Shown in pieces: positions 3,268 through 29,830 of a DNA stretch of 64,000 nt. The notes below the pieces were generated by a model. The model did not search any database. It saw only the letters and a program-made list of their open reading frames with translations, and had not been told where the DNA came from. The number at the start of each line of letters is the position of its first letter. Within the stretch, counting starts at the first letter, position 1. Both the position numbers and the translations under genes were made by a program. Origin of the DNA: Alphaproteobacteria bacterium (GTDB lineage Bacteria; Pseudomonadota; Alphaproteobacteria; UBA6615); NCBI GenBank assembly GCA_965222215.1, contig OZ244931.1, forward strand, positions 1,716,546 to 1,780,545, written 5' to 3'.

Positions 3268-4644
3268 ATGAAAGCGATTATTTGCGGCGGCGGCCAGGTC
3301 GGCTCCAGCATTGCACGCGAACTTGCGGCGGAACGGGTCGACGTCACCGTTATCGACCAAAGTCCGGACCTGATTCGGCGGATTCGCGACACGCTGGACG
3401 TCACCGCCATGGTCGGGTTTGCCTCCCATCCGGACGTGCTTGAAGCCGCCGGCGCGCGCGATGCGGACATGATCGTGGCCGTGACGTTCGCTGACGAAGT
3501 GAACATGATCGCGTGCCAGGTCGCACACTCGCTTTTCGATGTGCCCATGAAAATCGCGCGCGTGCGGGCACAGAGTTACCGAAACCCGATCTGGTCGGAC
3601 CTGTTTTCGCGCGACCACATGCCTATCGACGTGATCATTTCGCCGGAGATCGAGGTGGCGCGCGCCATCAGTCGGCGTTTCACGGTCCCCGGCTCGTTCG
3701 AGATGATTCCACTGGCCGAAAACCGGCTCCGCCTGATCGGCGTGCGCTGCGAGAATAACTGTCCCATCCTCGACACGCCGCTACGCCAGCTCACGACGCT
3801 TTTTCCGGACCTGCGACTATCGACGATCGGAATCATCCGTGAAGGCAAGCCGATCGTGCCGACGGGCGACGACCACCTGGAAGTCGGCGACGAGGTCTAT
3901 ATTGTCGTCGACGCGGAACATGTGCCGCGCTCAATGGCGGCGTTCGGCCATGACGAACCCGAAGCGCGGCGAGTGGTCATCATCGGCGGCGGGAACATCG
4001 GCCAGAGCCTCGCGCAAGATATCGAGGAGCAATTTTCCGGCGTATCGGCTCGCCTGATCGAGCTGGACAAGGAACGCGCCCAGAGCGCGGCCCAGGCCTT
4101 GTCCAAAACCACCGTCATCAATGGCGATGCGCTCGATCCCGATATCCTCGGCGAGGCGAACATCAGCAAGACCAGTACGGTCGTGGCGGTCACCAACGAC
4201 GACGAGGTGAATATTCTCGCCTCCCTGCTGGCAAAGCGGTACGGGGCGGAACGCGCCGTAACCCTGGTCAACAGCAATACCTACAACCCGTTGCTGGCGC
4301 CGCTGGGTATCGATGTGGTCGTGAACCCGCGCGTGATTACGGTCTCGACGATCCTTCAGGTAATTCGCCGCGGACGTATCAGATCGGTGCACTCCATCGG
4401 CGAGAACTTCGGCGAGGTGATCGAGGCCGAAGCGCTGGAGACATCGAGCCTCGTCGGGCAACCCATCAAGGACGCGAAGCTGCCTCAAGGCGTGATCGTG
4501 TCGGCAGTGATCCGTGACGGTGAGGTCATCATGGTCGACAAGGAAACGGTCATCAATGTGGGTGACCGGGTGATCCTTTTCGCGACCAAGGATGCTGTCC
4601 GCAAGGTGGAGCGGATGTTTGCCGTCCGCCTTGAGTTTTTTTAG
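3268..4644 (+). CDS. trkA: Trk potassium uptake protein TrkA (tandem NAD-binding + RCK_C domains)
   Basis: Two GxGxxG Rossmann motifs (ICGGGQVG, IIGGGNIG), 458 aa, conserved position after ntrYX. Confidence 0.85.
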   Translation: MKAIICGGGQVGSSIARELAAERVDVTVIDQSPDLIRRIRDTLDVTAMVGFASHPDVLEAAGARDADMIVAVTFADEVNMIACQVAHSLFDVPMKIARVRAQSYRNPIWSDLFSRDHMPIDVIISPEIEVARAISRRFTVPGSFEMIPLAENRLRLIGVRCENNCPILDTPLRQLTTLFPDLRLSTIGIIREGKPIVPTGDDHLEVGDEVYIVVDAEHVPRSMAAFGHDEPEARRVVIIGGGNIGQSLAQDIEEQFSGVSARLIELDKERAQSAAQALSKTTVINGDALDPDILGEANISKTSTVVAVTNDDEVNILASLLAKRYGAERAVTLVNSNTYNPLLAPLGIDVVVNPRVITVSTILQVIRRGRIRSVHSIGENFGEVIEAEALETSSLVGQPIKDAKLPQGVIVSAVIRDGEVIMVDKETVINVGDRVILFATKDAVRKVERMFAVRLEFF

Positions 4645-4661
4645 AGGCGCGGAGCAGGGCA

Positions 4662-5531
4662 TTGCCGAGGATTGCTTACGTCAACGGGCGGTATGTCGAC
4701 CACCGCATGGCATCGGTCCATGTGGAAGATCGTGGCTACCAGTTTGCCGACGGGGTCTACGAGGTCATCCATCTGTTCCGCAATCGCCTGATCGACGAAG
4801 AGCCGCACCTCGATCGTCTGGATCGTTCCCTGGGTGAGCTCGATATGGCATGGCCCATGAGCCGTTCCGCGATGAAGGTCGCCATGCGCGAAATCGTTCG
4901 TCGCAACAGTTTTGCGACCGGCCTCCTGTACATCCAGGTGACACGCGGTGTCGCCCGCCGGGACCACAAGTTTCCGGAACAACCGGTGTCGTCGATTGTG
5001 GTGACGGTGCGTCCCATACCTGAATTCCCCGACGATATGCGTGAGCAGGGTGTCAACGTCGTGACGATCGAGGACATTCGCTGGGCGCGATGCGATATCA
5101 AATCCGTTTCGCTGCTGCCGAATGTTCTGGGCAAGCAGCAGGCAGCCGAAGCCGGTGCGTACGAAGCCTGGATGTTCGATGACGATGGGTTCATTACCGA
5201 GGGTACGTCGTCGAACGCCTGGATAGTCACGGGGGAGGGAACGCTGGTCACCCGCCCGGCGGCCAACGACATCCTGCGGGGAATTACCCGTCAGGCTATC
5301 CTGAAGCTCGCGGATGAACTCGAAATTCCATTCGAGGAACGAAAGTTCACGCGCGAAGAGGCCTGGACGGCGCGCGAGGCGTTCATGAGCAATTCGTCAC
5401 ATTTCGTGACCCCGGTGACGCGGATTGACGATGCGGTCATTGCGAATGGCCGTCCCGGTACGCTCAGTTCTGCATTGCATGATCGGTATCTCGAATTCAT
5501 GCTAGAATTTCATGTACTTGAAGAGGTTTGA
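4662..5531 (+). CDS. dat: Class IV aminotransferase (D-amino-acid / branched-chain aminotransferase family)
   Basis: Fold-type IV PLP enzyme motifs (YQFADGVYEV, catalytic K region), 289 aa, conserved between trkA and hfq. Confidence 0.75.
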   Translation: MPRIAYVNGRYVDHRMASVHVEDRGYQFADGVYEVIHLFRNRLIDEEPHLDRLDRSLGELDMAWPMSRSAMKVAMREIVRRNSFATGLLYIQVTRGVARRDHKFPEQPVSSIVVTVRPIPEFPDDMREQGVNVVTIEDIRWARCDIKSVSLLPNVLGKQQAAEAGAYEAWMFDDDGFITEGTSSNAWIVTGEGTLVTRPAANDILRGITRQAILKLADELEIPFEERKFTREEAWTAREAFMSNSSHFVTPVTRIDDAVIANGRPGTLSSALHDRYLEFMLEFHVLEEV

Positions 5532-5685
5532 TGCGGAATCCGAACATTTCCGGTCTTTCGGACTGGAAATCCGGCTTCCAAGGACTCACGTATAGAGGCG
5601 TATCGGCGGGCGTTTGCCGCCTTAACCTACTAACCCGAAGCACGCATAATACAACCCAAACAAGAATACGGCTGAGGTAAAAAAG

Positions 5686-5949
5686 ATGGCTGCTGAACGG
5701 TCACAGAACGTTCAGGACGTTTTCCTGAACCACATTCGCAAGAACAAAACGCCCGTGACGATCTTTCTGGTCAACGGGGTGAAACTGCAGGGTGTCGTCA
5801 CGTGGTTCGACAACTTCTGCGTTCTCTTGCGGCGCGACGCGCACTCGCAACTGGTTTACAAGCACGCGATTTCGACGGTGATGCCCTCGATGCCCGTGCA
5901 GCTGTTCGAACCGGAAACCGAAGATCACGAGGCCGAAGCGGCCGAGTAG
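5686..5949 (+). CDS. hfq: RNA chaperone Hfq
   Basis: Sm1/Sm2 motifs [26 protein letters not shown]...YKHAIST; AG-rich RBS (ggctgaggtaaaaaag) before ATG. Confidence 0.95.
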
Positions 5950-19451: not shown

Positions 19452-20476
19452 ACAAACGGATCCGGCCGTACCCTGATCAGCTGACGGCCCATATTGCGGC
19501 CTTCATACAGTCCGGTCAGCGCCGCCGGTGCGTTCTCCAGACCGTCCACGATATCCTCCCGGTACCTGATTTTGCCGTCCGAGACCCATTTCGACAGGTC
19601 GGCATGGGCTTCGGCAAACCGGGGCGCGTAGTCGAACAACAGGAATCCCTGCATCTTGATCCGGTTGACCAGGAGGTTGCGCTCAGGGCGCAGGCCGGTC
19701 GGCTGCGGGATCCAGGAGTCGGTTGCCGCGGTGCCGCAGATGGCGACGCGGCCGTGCAGGTTCACCTGCCCGAGGACCATGTCGAGAATGTCGCCACCGA
19801 CATTGTCGTAGTAGACGTCGACGCCGTCCGGGCAGGCGTCGCGGATCGCCGCATCGAGGTCGTCGCTCGCCTTGTAGTCGATCGCGGCATCGAAGCCGAA
19901 CTCATCCGTGCAGATCGCCGTCTTTTCGGGACCGCCGGCGATCCCGACGGTCCGGCAACCCTTGATTTTCGCGATCTGGCCGACGGCGCTGCCGACCGCA
20001 CCCGCTGCCGTCGATACCAGAACCGTTTCGCCCTCCTTGGGCTGGCCGATATCAAGCAGCCCGAAATACGCTGTGAATCCGTTCACGCCGAGTACGCCGA
20101 GCGCTGTCGAAATTGGCGCGGCGGCGGGATCGACCTTGCGAAATGTGGGTTGATCCGGATCCGCGACGGCGTATGCGGCCCATCCGGTATTCGCCGCCAC
20201 GACATCGCCTTCCGCAACATCCGCGTGGTTGGATTCGACGACGACGCCGACGCTGAACGAGCGCATGGTCGCGCCTGTTTCCACGCTGGCGTAGTTTCGC
20301 GCTGTGCCGATCCAGCCCTTCATCCCGGGGTCGGCCGAGACATAGACGTTGTTGATGAGCACCTCACCGTCGCCGGGTGACGGCGCGTCGTCTTCGACGA
20401 CGTCGAAGAGGTCCGGTGAGGGAAGGCCGGTGGCGCGTTCTTTCAGAACGACGCGTGTGTTTTTGTGCTGAGGCAT
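19448..20476 (-). CDS. NADP-dependent oxidoreductase, MDR family (CurA/YncB, leukotriene B4 12-hydroxydehydrogenase-like enone reductase)
   Basis: AAGAVGSAVGQIAKIKG Rossmann motif; start placed at ATG 20476 with GGAG RBS (MPQHKNTRVV). Confidence 0.75.
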   Translation of the reverse strand: MPQHKNTRVVLKERATGLPSPDLFDVVEDDAPSPGDGEVLINNVYVSADPGMKGWIGTARNYASVETGATMRSFSVGVVVESNHADVAEGDVVAANTGWAAYAVADPDQPTFRKVDPAAAPISTALGVLGVNGFTAYFGLLDIGQPKEGETVLVSTAAGAVGSAVGQIAKIKGCRTVGIAGGPEKTAICTDEFGFDAAIDYKASDDLDAAIRDACPDGVDVYYDNVGGDILDMVLGQVNLHGRVAICGTAATDSWIPQPTGLRPERNLLVNRIKMQGFLLFDYAPRFAEAHADLSKWVSDGKIRYREDIVDGLENAPAALTGLYEGRNMGRQLIRVRPDPFV

Positions 20477-23919: not shown

Positions 23920-24070
23920 GTGGTTTCCCCCGAAATGAGGTTCCGCCTGTGTCCGACGAGAACCAACTGCACGCTACCGTACCACACGGGCCACGAACGG
24001 ATATTGCTTTTTGTGCATACATGCCGTGCCGCGGGAAGGGCCGGTGCCCCAGGCATTGGAGGCATGCAAA

Positions 24071-24100
24071 AGGGGCCGGCACATGCGTGCGGGCCCCTTT
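24071..24100 (-). terminator. Intrinsic terminator downstream of tRNA-Asn (GGGGCCCGCACGCATGTGCCGGCCCC hairpin flanked by T/A runs)
   Basis: Stem aaaaggggccggc / gcgggcccctttt seen directly. Confidence 0.6.
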
Positions 24101-24109
24101 TGGAAATTC

Positions 24110-24185
24110 TGGCTCCGGCGGCAGGACTCGAACCTGCGACCCAGCGATTAACAGTCGCTTGCTCTACCAACTGAGCTACGCCGGA
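24110..24185 (-). tRNA. tRNA-Asn (anticodon GTT)
   Basis: Cloverleaf folded by hand: acceptor tccggcg/cgccgga, D-arm gctc..gagc, anticodon loop ctGTTaa, T-arm gcagg ttcgagt cctgc, encoded CCA. Confidence 0.9.
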
Positions 24186-24199
24186 TTGGTAAGCGCGCG

Positions 24200-24227
24200 G
24201 TTATATCAAAGACCGGCGAATTCGCAA
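24200..24227 (-). promoter_or_regulatory. Candidate sigma-70 promoter for tRNA-Asn (-35 TTGCGA, 16-nt spacer, -10 TATAAC)
   Basis: Read on minus strand: TTGCGAattcgccggtctttgaTATAAC, about 14 nt upstream of tRNA 5' end. Confidence 0.5.
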
Positions 24228-24246
24228 CAGGGGGAATGCAATACCT

Positions 24247-25032
24247 TCAGCCCCCATATCCATGAACCCGGTCCGCGATGGCGGCCGAACCGGCGATTAG
24301 CACGCTCATATCCTGCCCCGCGAGTACGAAACGCACGCCCATGCCGATGTATTTTTCCTGCAGCTCCGGCACGGGGACCCCGCCCATGCCCATCCACTTG
24401 TCGTGCTTTCGGCAGGCCGCCGCGACCGTCTCGTAGTTCGCGGCGATGCGTGCATCGCCGACCTCGCCGGGAATTCCGGATGCCGCCGCGAGGTCATTGG
24501 TGCCGATCATGACGACGTCGACGCCATCGACCGCGGCGATTTCATCGGCCCGCGAGATCGCGCCCGGTGTTTCCAGCATCACGACGACCAGCATGGCGTC
24601 GTTCATGGCGCGCGCGACGTCCCCGATCGGCGCGGTGCCGAAGCCCACCTGCGGCAACCCGCCGACGACGCTTCGGCGTCCCTCCGGCGGATAGTGAAGC
24701 CGGTCCACGATCTCGCGCGCTTCGTCCGCGCTCTCGCAGGACGGCATCACGATCCCGAGCGCACCGCCGTCGAGCGCGCGCGTGGCCATCGCGATTTCCC
24801 CTTTCGGCACGCGGACGAGCGGGGCAATGCCGGCGCTGAGCGCGGCCACGGAAATCTGCGCGGTCTGGTCGAGGGTGAGCGGCCCGTGTTCGAGGTCGAT
24901 GAATAACCAGTCCATCCCGGCCGTGTGCATCATTGAGGCGATGTCCGCCGTGCGGGCGAGCCTGATCCCCATGCCGACGGAAATTTCGCCGGCTTCGAGG
25001 CGCTGTCGTGCGCGGTTGGTGATGGTGACCAT
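24247..25032 (-). CDS. HpcH/HpaI aldolase family protein (2-keto-3-deoxy-acid aldolase / citrate-lyase beta-like)
   Basis: TIM-barrel aldolase motifs (IDLEHGP, ETPGAI, MIGTNDL). Confidence 0.8.
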   Translation of the reverse strand: MVTITNRARQRLEAGEISVGMGIRLARTADIASMMHTAGMDWLFIDLEHGPLTLDQTAQISVAALSAGIAPLVRVPKGEIAMATRALDGGALGIVMPSCESADEAREIVDRLHYPPEGRRSVVGGLPQVGFGTAPIGDVARAMNDAMLVVVMLETPGAISRADEIAAVDGVDVVMIGTNDLAAASGIPGEVGDARIAANYETVAAACRKHDKWMGMGGVPVPELQEKYIGMGVRFVLAGQDMSVLIAGSAAIADRVHGYGG

Positions 25033-25056
25033 GATGTTTTCCCTCTGGCTCTGTTC

Positions 25057-25926
25057 TCAGCCGGCCTGAAGCGCGTCGGCGCCGCGTTTATAATTCATGA
25101 TCCACTGACCCGGATTGCGGTTGACCAGCGGGCGCGCATACAGCGGATGCTTGAGGCTTCGAACCTCGTGTTCCAGTTCGAAAAGGAGTTCGCCCGACTT
25201 TGGGTCCACGATGTTCTGGAACCTGTACTGGTGTGTGCCGTCTTCGGCGGTAATCAAATCCCGCTGTTGCAGCTTCCCGTGGGGGCCGGTGAAGTCCGAG
25301 ATATAGATCTGGATGTGATGCCCGTCGAATTCGGGCGTCATGTGCTTGCGTTCTCGGAAATAGAGGTGCTGTCCAGGGCCCGTCGTAACCTGCGCCGCTG
25401 GGGCGCCGTCGAACGTCGTCAGGTGCGCGGACGCTCCCAGAATCTCCGCATAAAATTCGCAGATGCCCATGGCGGCACCCGGCTGCACGTCGAGCGCGAC
25501 ATAGGGCATGCCGACGGTCATCGGCGCGAAGCGGGGGCCCGGGGGGTGGCAGCGGATGCGGTTGCCCCAGGGGCAGGTCACGTCGATCCACGAGGCCCGT
25601 TGGGTGAAGTCGAACTGCGTGTCTTCCAGCAGCGGCCGGGCCGCATCGAGACGGGCCGGCAGATCGTCGTACCACGGCAAAACGAGACCGGTGTAACCCC
25701 GCAGCACATGGGTGCCGCGCGTGGGCAGATGAAACTGATGGTCGCCGACGTTGACCCACATGTTGTCGACGCCGGTCATCATATAGGGGTCACGCGTCAG
25801 GCCGAGCGCCGAGATGTAGAACGATGTCGCGAGAAGCTGATCGGGCACGCAGACGTTCACATGCTCCAGGTGCACGATGTTGCCGATATCCTCGCCGGAA
25901 CGGTCGAGTTTCGTTTTCGATCCCAT
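25057..25926 (-). CDS. Two-domain VOC-superfamily (glyoxalase / extradiol dioxygenase / HPPD-like) protein
   Basis: Two bab-bb modules each with FY..LG signature (IVHLEHVNVCVPDQLLATSFYISALGL; YVALDVQPGAAMGICEFYAEILGA) plus His/His/Glu candidate metal ligands; start at ATG 25926. Confidence 0.55.
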   Translation of the reverse strand: MGSKTKLDRSGEDIGNIVHLEHVNVCVPDQLLATSFYISALGLTRDPYMMTGVDNMWVNVGDHQFHLPTRGTHVLRGYTGLVLPWYDDLPARLDAARPLLEDTQFDFTQRASWIDVTCPWGNRIRCHPPGPRFAPMTVGMPYVALDVQPGAAMGICEFYAEILGASAHLTTFDGAPAAQVTTGPGQHLYFRERKHMTPEFDGHHIQIYISDFTGPHGKLQQRDLITAEDGTHQYRFQNIVDPKSGELLFELEHEVRSLKHPLYARPLVNRNPGQWIMNYKRGADALQAG

Positions 25927-25946
25927 GACGTGACCCCGAGCCCGGC

Positions 25947-26639
25947 TCAGTCGTCGAAAATAGCGACAGCGCGGATCGGGCTTGCCGTGCCGCCCTTGAT
26001 TTTCAGCGGGAAGCCGGCGAACCGGAACCGGCCCTTGCCGACAAGCCGGTCGAGGTTCATCAGGCATTCGATATGCGTGATGCCGCGTTCGGCACAGGCG
26101 AGGTGCGCGAGATAGTTGGGCTCGCCCTCGGGCGCGGGGCTGACGGCTTCGACGCCAAACATCCCGATGCCCTTGTCCGCCAGCCAGTGAACGGCGGGGA
26201 CGGACAAGCCCGGAAACTCGTGAACATAGTCCGGGCTTCCGTAGAGCCGGTTGTGGATTCCCATGTGGATCATCACCGTGTCGCCCGGCTTGATCTCCTC
26301 GCCGGACGCATCCAGAGCGGCCTCCATTTCCTCGACGGTGGCTTCATGCCGGTTCGGCAGTTCCCCGAAGTCGAGGCAGATGGCTTCGGTATAGAAATTC
26401 TCCAGTGGTACTTCGTCGATCGACGGCGCGTCGGGGCGGGGATCGAAATGCACCGGCGCATCGACATGCGTGCACGAATGGTCGCTGAGCGAGATCGAAA
26501 GAGATTTCGACGTGAACTCCGTATCGCCGGCGCGCTTGATCTCGGAATGGTCGTTCCAGACCGTGACCACGACAGGCGGGTGCGAAGGGTGCGCGGGCGC
26601 CCGGTGATGAATTTCGCGGCTGAGATCGATAATTTCCAT
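25947..26639 (-). CDS. Cyclase-family protein (kynurenine formamidase-like, PF04199)
   Basis: HxGTHxDxPxH motif (DHSCTHVDAPVHF); start at ATG 26639 with GGGAGG RBS. Confidence 0.75.
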   Translation of the reverse strand: MEIIDLSREIHHRAPAHPSHPPVVVTVWNDHSEIKRAGDTEFTSKSLSISLSDHSCTHVDAPVHFDPRPDAPSIDEVPLENFYTEAICLDFGELPNRHEATVEEMEAALDASGEEIKPGDTVMIHMGIHNRLYGSPDYVHEFPGLSVPAVHWLADKGIGMFGVEAVSPAPEGEPNYLAHLACAERGITHIECLMNLDRLVGKGRFRFAGFPLKIKGGTASPIRAVAIFDD

Positions 26640-26765
26640 AATTGCCCGTCCTCCCGGCAAACGATGACCCATGTCTGCCGCATTTCTATCACGAAACGGC
26701 GAGGGGCTCTTCAAGCCGTGCGCGCGCGCGCGGCCGTCGGCAGGGTCGGGATTTTGAAGCGAGTT

Positions 26766-26839
26766 TGGAGGCCCGGGCCGGAATCGAACCGACGTACAAG
26801 GATTTGCAGTCCTCTGCATAGCCACTCTGCCACCGGGCC
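26766..26839 (-). tRNA. tRNA-Cys (anticodon GCA)
   Basis: Hand-folded: acceptor ggcccgg/ccgggcc, anticodon loop ctGCAaa, T-loop ttcgatt, encoded CCA. Confidence 0.9.
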
Positions 26840-29251: not shown

Positions 29252-29830
29252 ATGAGTGATTCCAACGCCGACCAGCAAGAACCCTCCATGGAGGAAATCC
29301 TCGCGTCGATCCGCCGGATTATTTCGGAGGATGGCGATGAGGAAACCGATCAGCCGCAGGAAGCGTCCGCGGAGGATGCTGATTCAGTGACCGAAGACGA
29401 CCTGGACGACGACGTGCTGGAACTGACCGATATCGTCGACGACGAACCTGATTCGGAGCCTGCACCGGAGCCCGAGCCAGAGCCTGAACCGGACCCTGAA
29501 CCCGAGCCGGACCCTGAACCCGAGCCGGACCCTGAACGCGAGCCGGAACCAGAGCCCGAGCCGGAACCAGAGCCCGTTGCGCTGACGGACGACGAAGAGA
29601 AACTTGTCTCCGATGAAGTCGAGCAGGCCAGTGCGGCGACGATGTCCGGGCTGACGGCAGCGCTCGCTGCCACGGCCAGGGTCGGTGACGGCAACAAGAC
29701 TCTCGAGGAACTTGTGAAAGAGGTGCTTCGCCCGATCCTCAAGGAGTGGCTCGATGCCAACCTTCCGGAGACGGTTGAGCGCATCGTGCGTGAAGAAGTC
29801 GAGCGCATCGCGAGCCGCGCGAAAAAGTAA
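29252..29830 (+). CDS. DUF2497-domain protein with acidic (EP)n low-complexity linker
   Basis: Conserved N-terminus [12 protein letters not shown] and C-terminus [18 protein letters not shown]; central PEPEPEPD repeats. Confidence 0.75.
29461..29578 (+). repeat. In-frame tandem 6/18-bp repeats (gagccNgaRccN) encoding (E/D-P)n within the DUF2497 gene
   Basis: gaacccgagccggaccct repeated 3 times, then gagccggaaccagagccc 2 times. Confidence 0.85.

Follow-up and report, generated by a model that had tools for sequence, protein, structure and literature searches.

Results

A three-gene cassette between tRNA-Cys and tRNA-Asn

We analysed a 64-kb stretch of the genome of an Alphaproteobacteria bacterium (hereafter the window; contig OZ244931.1, positions 1,716,546 to 1,780,545, numbered here from its first letter), in which a first-pass annotation, made from the letters and their open reading frames, had noticed three catabolic-looking genes bracketed by tRNA genes. 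According to ARAGORN, the whole 64-kb window contains just two tRNA genes, both on the minus strand and both matching the Rfam tRNA model: tRNA-Cys (GCA) at 26766-26839 (59.6 bits) and tRNA-Asn (GTT) at 24110-24185 (72.3 bits). Between them, on the same strand and in the order of transcription, lie a 126-nt leader (26640-26765), a gene for a predicted metal-dependent hydrolase of the cyclase family PF04199 (25947-26639, 230 aa; Pfam E = 3.2e-32), a gene for a candidate metalloenzyme of the VOC fold with two domains, made up of four modules (25057-25926, 289 aa), and a gene for a class II aldolase of the HpcH/HpaI family (24247-25032, 261 aa; PF03328, E = 7.7e-28). The spacings between the three genes are 20 and 24 nt, with a purine-rich stretch resembling a ribosome-binding site (RBS) at each, which bears out the compact operon described earlier. 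As gene starts we chose those agreeing with database homologues; these are shorter than the versions of 336 and 308 aa given by the open reading frame finder, which are too long at the start. The three genes have a GC content of 0.62-0.67 and a GC content at third codon positions (GC3) of 0.78-0.84 on the minus strand, against a GC3 mean over the window of 0.79 ± 0.05, with codon-usage z scores of +0.55 to +0.94, and no GC shift across the cassette was detected within the window.

The slot between the two tRNA genes in related genomes

The surroundings of the cassette are syntenic in relatives, with PCMT-TolC-DUF2497-ValRS genes on one side and PAS_5/CMD/EamA genes on the other, and in all of them tRNA-Cys adjoins the conserved PCMT-TolC-DUF2497-ValRS block. 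What varies is the content of the slot between the two tRNA genes. The key comparison is with an outgroup, L116 (PCMT 66% identical), in which tRNA-Cys and tRNA-Asn are 51 nt apart and the slot is empty, the VOC gene of this genome being located ~1.9 Mb from the site. Six nucleotides after tRNA-Cys of L116 comes a block that begins at the equivalent of window position 24230 and makes up the spacer between the two tRNA genes. In the window this 45-nt block (24186-24230, minus strand) lies directly 5' of tRNA-Asn; it is 100% identical in the relative L001 and conserved in L002, L003, L005, L007, L008 and L116. Because the outgroup spacer is homologous to 24186-24230, the inserted segment, consisting of the leader and the three genes, can be placed at 24231-26765 by junction alignments with L001 and L116, with the tRNA-Cys 3' end (26766) as its upstream limit and the conserved block as its downstream limit. 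These alignments show what appears to be the ancestral state, tRNA-Cys and tRNA-Asn as neighbours ~51 nt apart with a spacer that would be the promoter region of tRNA-Asn, and show that in the window's clade DNA was apparently inserted precisely between the tRNA-Cys 3' end and this putative promoter block. The first-pass annotation had proposed to look for relatives in which the two tRNA genes are adjacent and free of the cassette, and L116 is such a case.

The cargo of the slot has been remodelled. L001, whose VOC protein is 77% identical, has the same three genes there. In L002, L003, L005 and L008 the slot holds two MDR oxidoreductases, one PIG3-type and one CurA-type, a LysR regulator, and then the VOC and cyclase genes in this order, with no HpcH aldolase; some of these four also carry an upstream HMGL-like lyase and an Amidohydro_2 enzyme. 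In L007 the series runs MDR, LysR, GMC oxidoreductase, cyclase, VOC, aldolase, AllH, FdrA, AllG, carbamate kinase and then tRNA-Asn. Thus, the order of VOC and cyclase is reversed between relatives, and the aldolase, LysR, the reductases, the GMC oxidoreductase, the HMGL-like lyase and the Amidohydro_2 enzyme have been gained or lost, while the VOC and cyclase genes themselves are neighbours in all seven loci in which both are seen (the window not counted), separated by ~70 nt in L002, L005 and L008 and by about 1 kb in L003. Of all versions of the cassette, that of the window is the most reduced: it measures 2.5 kb, and its three co-directional genes are not accompanied by a regulator. We considered whether the HMGL-like lyase might stand in for the missing HpcH aldolase in relatives; this idea was not sustained, as L007 has both.

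Two further relatives carry other DNA at this place. The slot of L118 (4838-7731) contains co-directional genes for a PRK-family kinase, an isochorismatase-family hydrolase and a 139-aa glyoxalase/VOC protein. In L117 (1-8833; PCMT 72-74% identical) tRNA-Cys stands beside PCMT and no cassette follows. The genes found there instead include those of mobile elements and DNA modification (an IS1595 transposase, an HNH protein and a DNA methylase), along with genes for a fatty-acid desaturase, a methyltransferase, an outer-membrane protein, a glyoxalase of 179 aa and a peptidase resembling ImmA/IrrE. With the empty site of L116, the alternative cargo of L118 and the mobile-element genes of L117, the suspicion that the tRNA-flanked position is an insertion hotspot is supported, and the cassette, the slot being empty or otherwise occupied in these relatives, is by sequence comparison a lineage-specific accessory operon and not core to the wider group.

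Several observations on these loci may be recorded here. The L118 cargo again pairs a small VOC protein with a hydrolase. The ~1 kb between VOC and cyclase in L003 (6856-7890) is apparently non-coding or degenerate. The genes that follow the aldolase directly in L007 (7764-12052) encode AllH, FdrA (AllF) and AllG, subunits of oxamate carbamoyltransferase, together with carbamate kinase, and hint at a link to oxalurate or ureide catabolism, in this one genome only. Encoded in L116 between tRNA-Cys and PCMT (3883-5831) are a paralogue of the cyclase (54% identical) and a 319-aa protein that matches nothing in Pfam or NCBIfam, and on the same side of tRNA-Cys also an MFS transporter and an S15 peptidase; the 319-aa protein was considered as a hidden VOC relative and ruled out by an hhalign probability of 0.1%. 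Lastly, the window has its own gene for a CurA-like NADPH enone reductase (19469-20461, minus strand), which lies ~3.6 kb past tRNA-Asn, outside the tRNA interval; its product is 52% identical to the one inside the relatives' cassettes, and L001 has a counterpart at the equivalent place.

The VOC-fold protein

The central protein of the cassette belongs to a large uncharacterised family. Its sole Pfam signal is a sub-threshold Glyoxalase match (17.5 bits against a cutoff of 20.6 bits). The family comprises at least 7,690 clusters at 90% identity, nearly all labelled 'hypothetical'. A profile search of 1.84 billion cluster representatives gave 1,864 matches, 479 of them at E <= 1e-30 (clusters at 50% identity), and members occur in soil and marine bacteria of several phyla. 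Searching the Protein Data Bank (PDB) by sequence with the protein and with two profiles returned only weak matches to methylmalonyl-CoA epimerase (MCEE) and small glyoxalases; we used the MCEE matches to place ligand positions, and they do not identify the family to which the protein belongs. Structure prediction, suggested earlier as a way to locate the metal ligands, gave a confident AlphaFold model (40 homologues, pLDDT 90.6) with the paired beta-alpha-beta-beta-beta modules of the VOC superfamily, and its fold matches single-chain glyoxalase I (GlxI), GLOD4, PcpA and MhqO.

In the family alignment, which reaches down to 32% identity, H66, H204, E254, R256 and H260 are invariant and H22, E252 and H253 are at least 90% conserved; many arginines are invariant as well. 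The weak profile matches align H22, H66 and H204 with MCEE positions that we take to be metal ligands. From these observations we propose a predicted His/His/His/Glu metal site formed by H22, H66, H204 and E254, with E252 on the same strand face. The prediction of a metal-ligand set, which the first-pass annotation had described as His/His/Glu, is therefore upheld in a modified form, and the architecture that it had named, extradiol dioxygenase or 4-hydroxyphenylpyruvate dioxygenase (HPPD), is not. Type I extradiol dioxygenases such as BphC, XylE, HPCD and HsaC carry His/His/Glu in the C-terminal domain only, and HPPD and hydroxymandelate synthase are proteins of ~350-400 aa with two barrel domains, a C-terminal 2-His-1-Glu site and a 2-oxo acid as substrate; the 289-aa protein has neither arrangement. 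It is not a glyoxalase I proper either, since the octahedral His(Gln)/Glu/His/Glu Ni/Zn site of that enzyme is broken by H66 in place of the first Glu. The protein is thus not a classical extradiol dioxygenase or HPPD, and by its predicted fold resembles the single-chain GlxI/PcpA/MhqO architecture.

Among proteins with this architecture, PcpA binds Fe(II) through His11, His227 and Glu276, an N-terminal His with a C-terminal His and Glu (PMC3204407). PcpA, LinE and MhqO would resemble the cassette protein in this pattern, the putative equivalents of His11/His227/Glu276 of PcpA being H22/H204/E254, and differ from it in an identity of only 8-13% with no sequence-level match, in lacking the extra invariant His (H66) at a fourth ligand position, and in gene partners, which in the cassette are a cyclase-family hydrolase and an HpcH aldolase instead of maleylacetate reductase. 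In the relatives the VOC gene is accompanied by quinone/enone reductases and a hydrolase, an arrangement that resembles the Bacillus subtilis mhq genes. Single-chain glyoxalase I (maize GLX1, 6bnn) and human GLOD4 are 11-13% identical, and the GlxI ligand set is not kept, H66 replacing its first Glu; no glyoxalase II or glutathione genes are found near the VOC gene.

The cyclase-family hydrolase and the aldolase

The cyclase scores 112 bits against PF04199 (cutoff 23.1), and its metal motif, H54-S-C-T-H58-V-D60-A-P-V-H64, is intact and aligns with that of isatin hydrolase, with Cys replacing Gly. The best solved relatives are the isatin hydrolases 5nnb and 5nmp (E = 8e-15), with which it shares PF04199, the aligned HxxTHxDxPxH motif and a similar size. 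The match to isatin hydrolase A does no better than 8e-15, and the protein belongs to a subfamily of its own, very tightly conserved, which has no characterised member. Homologues of 73-91% identity are found across phyla and include entries labelled Thermomicrobiales and Hyphomicrobiaceae (73-76%). Within the clade (L001-L008) the cyclase is 86-94% identical, versus 72-82% for PCMT and TolC and 62-77% for the VOC protein, a pattern that for a catabolic hydrolase points either to uncommonly strong constraint or to frequent transfer. The 90% cluster of the cyclase also has a member entered under the brown alga Discosporangium mesarthrocarpum, probably owing to bacterial contamination of that assembly.

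The aldolase scores 97.7 bits against PF03328 (cutoff 25), and in the PDB it matches YfaU (2vws, E = 6.9e-32) and HpaI (1e-28 to 1e-29). Its residues H49, R74, E154 and D180 line up with those YfaU residues that we take to be catalytic (His/Arg) and metal-binding (Glu/Asp) in YfaU and HpaI. These features agree with the family named for it at first pass and place it, by prediction, among the class II (metal-dependent) pyruvate aldolases known from meta-cleavage and sugar-acid pathways, HpaI, YfaU and GarL. Unlike these, it stays far below every equivalog cutoff (137, 137, 130 and 107 bits against NCBIfam GarL, HpaI and YfaU models whose cutoffs are 393, 407, 369 and 441), and the scores assign no specific substrate.

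Neighbourhoods of the VOC family outside the clade

We clustered the gene neighbourhoods of 112 VOC-family loci, applying a GC3 filter to the open reading frames. One neighbour recurs across lineages: a flavin monooxygenase of group D, resembling HsaA, HpaH-C2 and Rv3094c and not an acyl-CoA dehydrogenase, is co-directional with the VOC gene in 13 of the ~70-80 evaluable loci, with a gap of 21-139 nt in 11 of these 13 and with both gene orders represented. A hydroxylase gene beside a VOC enzyme is the classical arrangement feeding a ring-cleaving dioxygenase, and the 13 co-directional loci, 11 of them with the genes immediately adjacent, resemble the pairing of HsaA with the VOC dioxygenase HsaC. 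The other recurrent neighbours (purD/purH, TctC, SDR and aldo-keto reductase genes) look like lineage synteny and were set aside. Fusion proteins, examined as possible Rosetta stones, were uninformative, one having an extra glyoxalase domain and one being a probable chimera. In one cultured species, Paraburkholderia caffeinitolerans (L022, 6001-9621), a VOC-family gene lies beside an MFS transporter gene and a shikimate/quinate dehydrogenase-like gene.

Signals for transcription

The leader has an RBS-like GGGAGGA ahead of the cyclase ATG and a GC-rich alternating (CG)n palindrome at 26715-26734, ~30-50 nt past the tRNA-Cys 3' end; this palindrome lacks a U-run after it, and the leader of L001 does not have it. 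No Rfam riboswitch matches the leader, its predicted RNA fold is no better than that of shuffled sequences (z = +0.54), and neither a canonical terminator nor any terminator-like site was detected in it. The conserved block at 24186-24230 contains a -35-like TTGCGA (24222-24227) and, after a 16-nt spacer, a -10-like TATAAC (24200-24205); it is probably the own promoter of tRNA-Asn, an assignment we propose from its conservation, the consensus scan not having called it. Just downstream of tRNA-Asn, at 24067-24102 on the minus strand, an inverted repeat with 16-nt arms (94% complementary) and a U-run is predicted to fold as an intrinsic-terminator hairpin (-27.7 kcal/mol, z = -3.8). This hairpin is the first convincing terminator after tRNA-Cys on the minus strand, none being found in the intervals that separate the cassette from tRNA-Cys and from tRNA-Asn. 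Because no terminator separates these three units, the cassette, which in the window has no dedicated regulator gene, might be transcribed by read-through from the tRNA-Cys promoter, with transcripts ending at the hairpin beyond tRNA-Asn. Rfam also gives a weak 'Thr_leader' match (24066-24129, E = 0.37), which overlaps the hairpin and the tRNA-Asn 3' end and probably reflects just these.

Discussion

A possible ring-cleavage pathway

We favour the view that the cassette is an accessory catabolic operon for ring cleavage, hydrolysis and aldol cleavage of some (hetero)aromatic compound, and we assign it a probability of about 0.5. In this scenario, the VOC protein would bind Fe(II) or Mn(II) through H22, H66, H204 and E254, located in the first and last of its beta-alpha-beta-beta-beta modules, and would catalyse O2-dependent cleavage of a dihydroxylated aromatic ring, of hydroquinone or catechol type and possibly containing nitrogen. 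The cyclase, as an isatin-hydrolase-like Mn/Zn hydrolase, might cut an amide, formyl or lactone bond either of the substrate or of the ring-fission product, so that the two steps could take place in either order, and the HpcH-type aldolase would then split the resulting 4-hydroxy-2-oxo acid into pyruvate and an aldehyde. We prefer this scenario because the HsaA-like pairing of the VOC family, the PcpA/MhqO-like fold and the quinone/enone reductases in the relatives' cassettes come together in it. In addition, the VOC-cyclase pair has been kept through inversion of gene order and turnover of neighbours, which argues for functional coupling within the clade. The meta-cleavage-like route proposed in the first-pass annotation is accordingly still plausible with respect to the conserved ligands and the HsaA-like neighbours; the class of dioxygenase was mis-assigned there, and the chemistry is a prediction from sequence.

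A number of observations weigh against this scenario. Neither the VOC family nor the cyclase subfamily has a biochemically characterised member, and the aldolase is absent from most relatives' cassettes. Outside the marine alphaproteobacterial clade neither VOC nor cyclase keeps the other as a neighbour, and in 80 metagenome loci a cyclase and an aldolase turned up as neighbours just once each, both of them weak matches. The contexts of cyclase homologues vary, from an amide-type ABC transporter with a PuuE-like protein (L034) or an amidase with an AtzH-like protein (L120) to genes standing alone. Moreover, a scan for sigma-70 consensus promoters called no site in the region, the leader included. 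In passing, the protein encoded downstream of the cyclase in L034 was considered as a VOC protein and ruled out; it is the PuuE-like deacetylase.

One could extend the ring-cleavage scenario and suppose that the 289-aa protein founds a very widespread family of VOC enzymes that cleave rings, or activate O2 in some other way, at an unusual 3-His-1-Glu site, that in marine Alphaproteobacteria it joins the hyper-conserved isatin-hydrolase-like cyclase and the pyruvate aldolase in a route not described before, whose substrate would be some hydroquinone or N-heteroaromatic compound abundant in nature, and that the window version is expressed by read-through from a tRNA promoter. We consider this combination doubtful.

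Alternative explanations

A different account, which we regard as a tentative possibility, makes the VOC protein a metal-dependent isomerase, epimerase or lyase of GlxI or MCEE type in an operon that acts on a non-aromatic cyclic amide, ureide or keto acid by hydrolysis (cyclase), proton-transfer chemistry (VOC) and aldolase cleavage. At the sequence level the PDB indeed shows similarity to MCEE alone, and there the ligand positions coincide; the site, like those of GlxI and MCEE, comprises four such positions (H/H/H/E) and not a 2-His-1-carboxylate triad; and the many invariant arginines would suit a small carboxylate substrate. Some contexts have an amide or ureide flavour, namely L034 with its PuuE-like protein and amide ABC transporter, L120 with its amidase and AtzH-like protein, and L007 with AllFGH and carbamate kinase. 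Against this stand the 13 loci in which the family adjoins HsaA-like aromatic hydroxylases and the quinone/enone reductases within the relatives' cassettes, as well as the replacement of Glu by H66, which departs from the H/E/H/E set of GlxI, and the absence of CoA- or glutathione-related genes from the cassette.

It is also conceivable, and in our judgement unlikely, that the three genes do not form one pathway, the slot merely gathering stand-alone accessory genes whose enzymes each work on their own, in detoxification for instance. In favour of this, members of the VOC family and of the cyclase subfamily mostly occur apart, among neighbours of many kinds, what the slot contains changes from relative to relative, and the window cassette has no dedicated regulator. 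This view is harder to reconcile with VOC and cyclase being neighbours in 7 of 7 clade loci with both genes in spite of order inversion and turnover, with the 20-24 nt gaps and common strand in the window that indicate one transcript, or with the single LysR gene that precedes the VOC-cyclase pair in relatives.

With regard to the origin of the inserted segment, we need to consider whether it is a recent integrative genomic island that entered tRNA-Cys by means of a tyrosine integrase since lost. A tRNA 3' end is the classical attB position, the insertion abuts exactly such an end, and in a close relative (L117) IS1595, HNH and methylase genes lie near this tRNA gene. To this extent the segment is like known tRNA-associated genomic islets: the 3' end of a tRNA gene is exactly where it was inserted, and in relatives the site is empty, holds other cargo or has mobile-element genes. 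It is unlike them in that the syntenic flanks contain no integrase gene, no second copy of either tRNA 3' end is present elsewhere in the window with up to 3 mismatches allowed, no other relevant flanking repeats, and hence no att repeats, were found in the window, neither base composition (GC, GC3) nor codon usage departs from what is typical in the window, and the 2.5-kb cargo is common to a whole subclade. A search of 72,556 plasmids gave no match to the VOC protein. Furthermore, at least seven related genomes share the cassette at the same site with 62-94% protein identity, and therefore the insertion predates their divergence. Recent integration is thus very improbable. The lack of an integrase, of a tRNA-end repeat and of a composition shift, which the first-pass annotation had already remarked upon and our searches of flanks, repeats and composition confirm, leads us instead to regard the insertion as apparently old, or derived from a similar genome, and since remodelled; the sharing of the site by at least seven genomes adds to the support for the old insertion favoured there.

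Least credible of all is a role in the tryptophan/kynurenine pathway with the cyclase as kynurenine formamidase (KynB), a likeness drawn at first pass and echoed by the JGI label 'kynurenine formamidase' on homologues and by the common HxxTHxDxPxH motif, of which the motif stands, with its change of Gly to Cys, and the assignment fails, since the protein reaches only 60.1 bits against the KynB equivalog TIGR03035 (NCBIfam, cutoff 223), KynB structures match at only about E = 1e-7 versus 8e-15 for the isatin hydrolases, and neither the cassette nor the relatives' versions contain a tryptophan 2,3-dioxygenase or kynureninase gene.

Broader relevance

For the genome of the window, the cassette is an ordinary small accessory catabolic module, and the superfamilies it is built from are known. 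What deserves attention is, first, a pair of large uncharacterised enzyme families and, second, an unusually clean mapping of the insertion site. The latter provides a base-pair-resolved case in which small metabolic cassettes are swapped in and out between two tRNA genes, leaving neither an integrase nor repeat scars. As to the former, our analysis flags two large and highly conserved families lacking a characterised member, the two-domain VOC proteins, which have neither a Pfam family of their own nor a solved structure detectable by sequence, and the isatin-hydrolase-like cyclase subfamily. Marine and soil metagenomes commonly contain both, and if their substrates were found, thousands of entries now carried as 'hypothetical protein' or mis-annotated as 'kynurenine formamidase' could be corrected.

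Two minor observations concern the neighbouring genes. In L117, ARAGORN calls an odd 98-nt 'tRNA-Pro' at 5156-5253. In the window, the gene between those of TolC and ValRS (29252-29830, plus strand) encodes a DUF2497 protein in which a long repeat of acidic character, (Glu-Pro)n / PEPEPD, is present.

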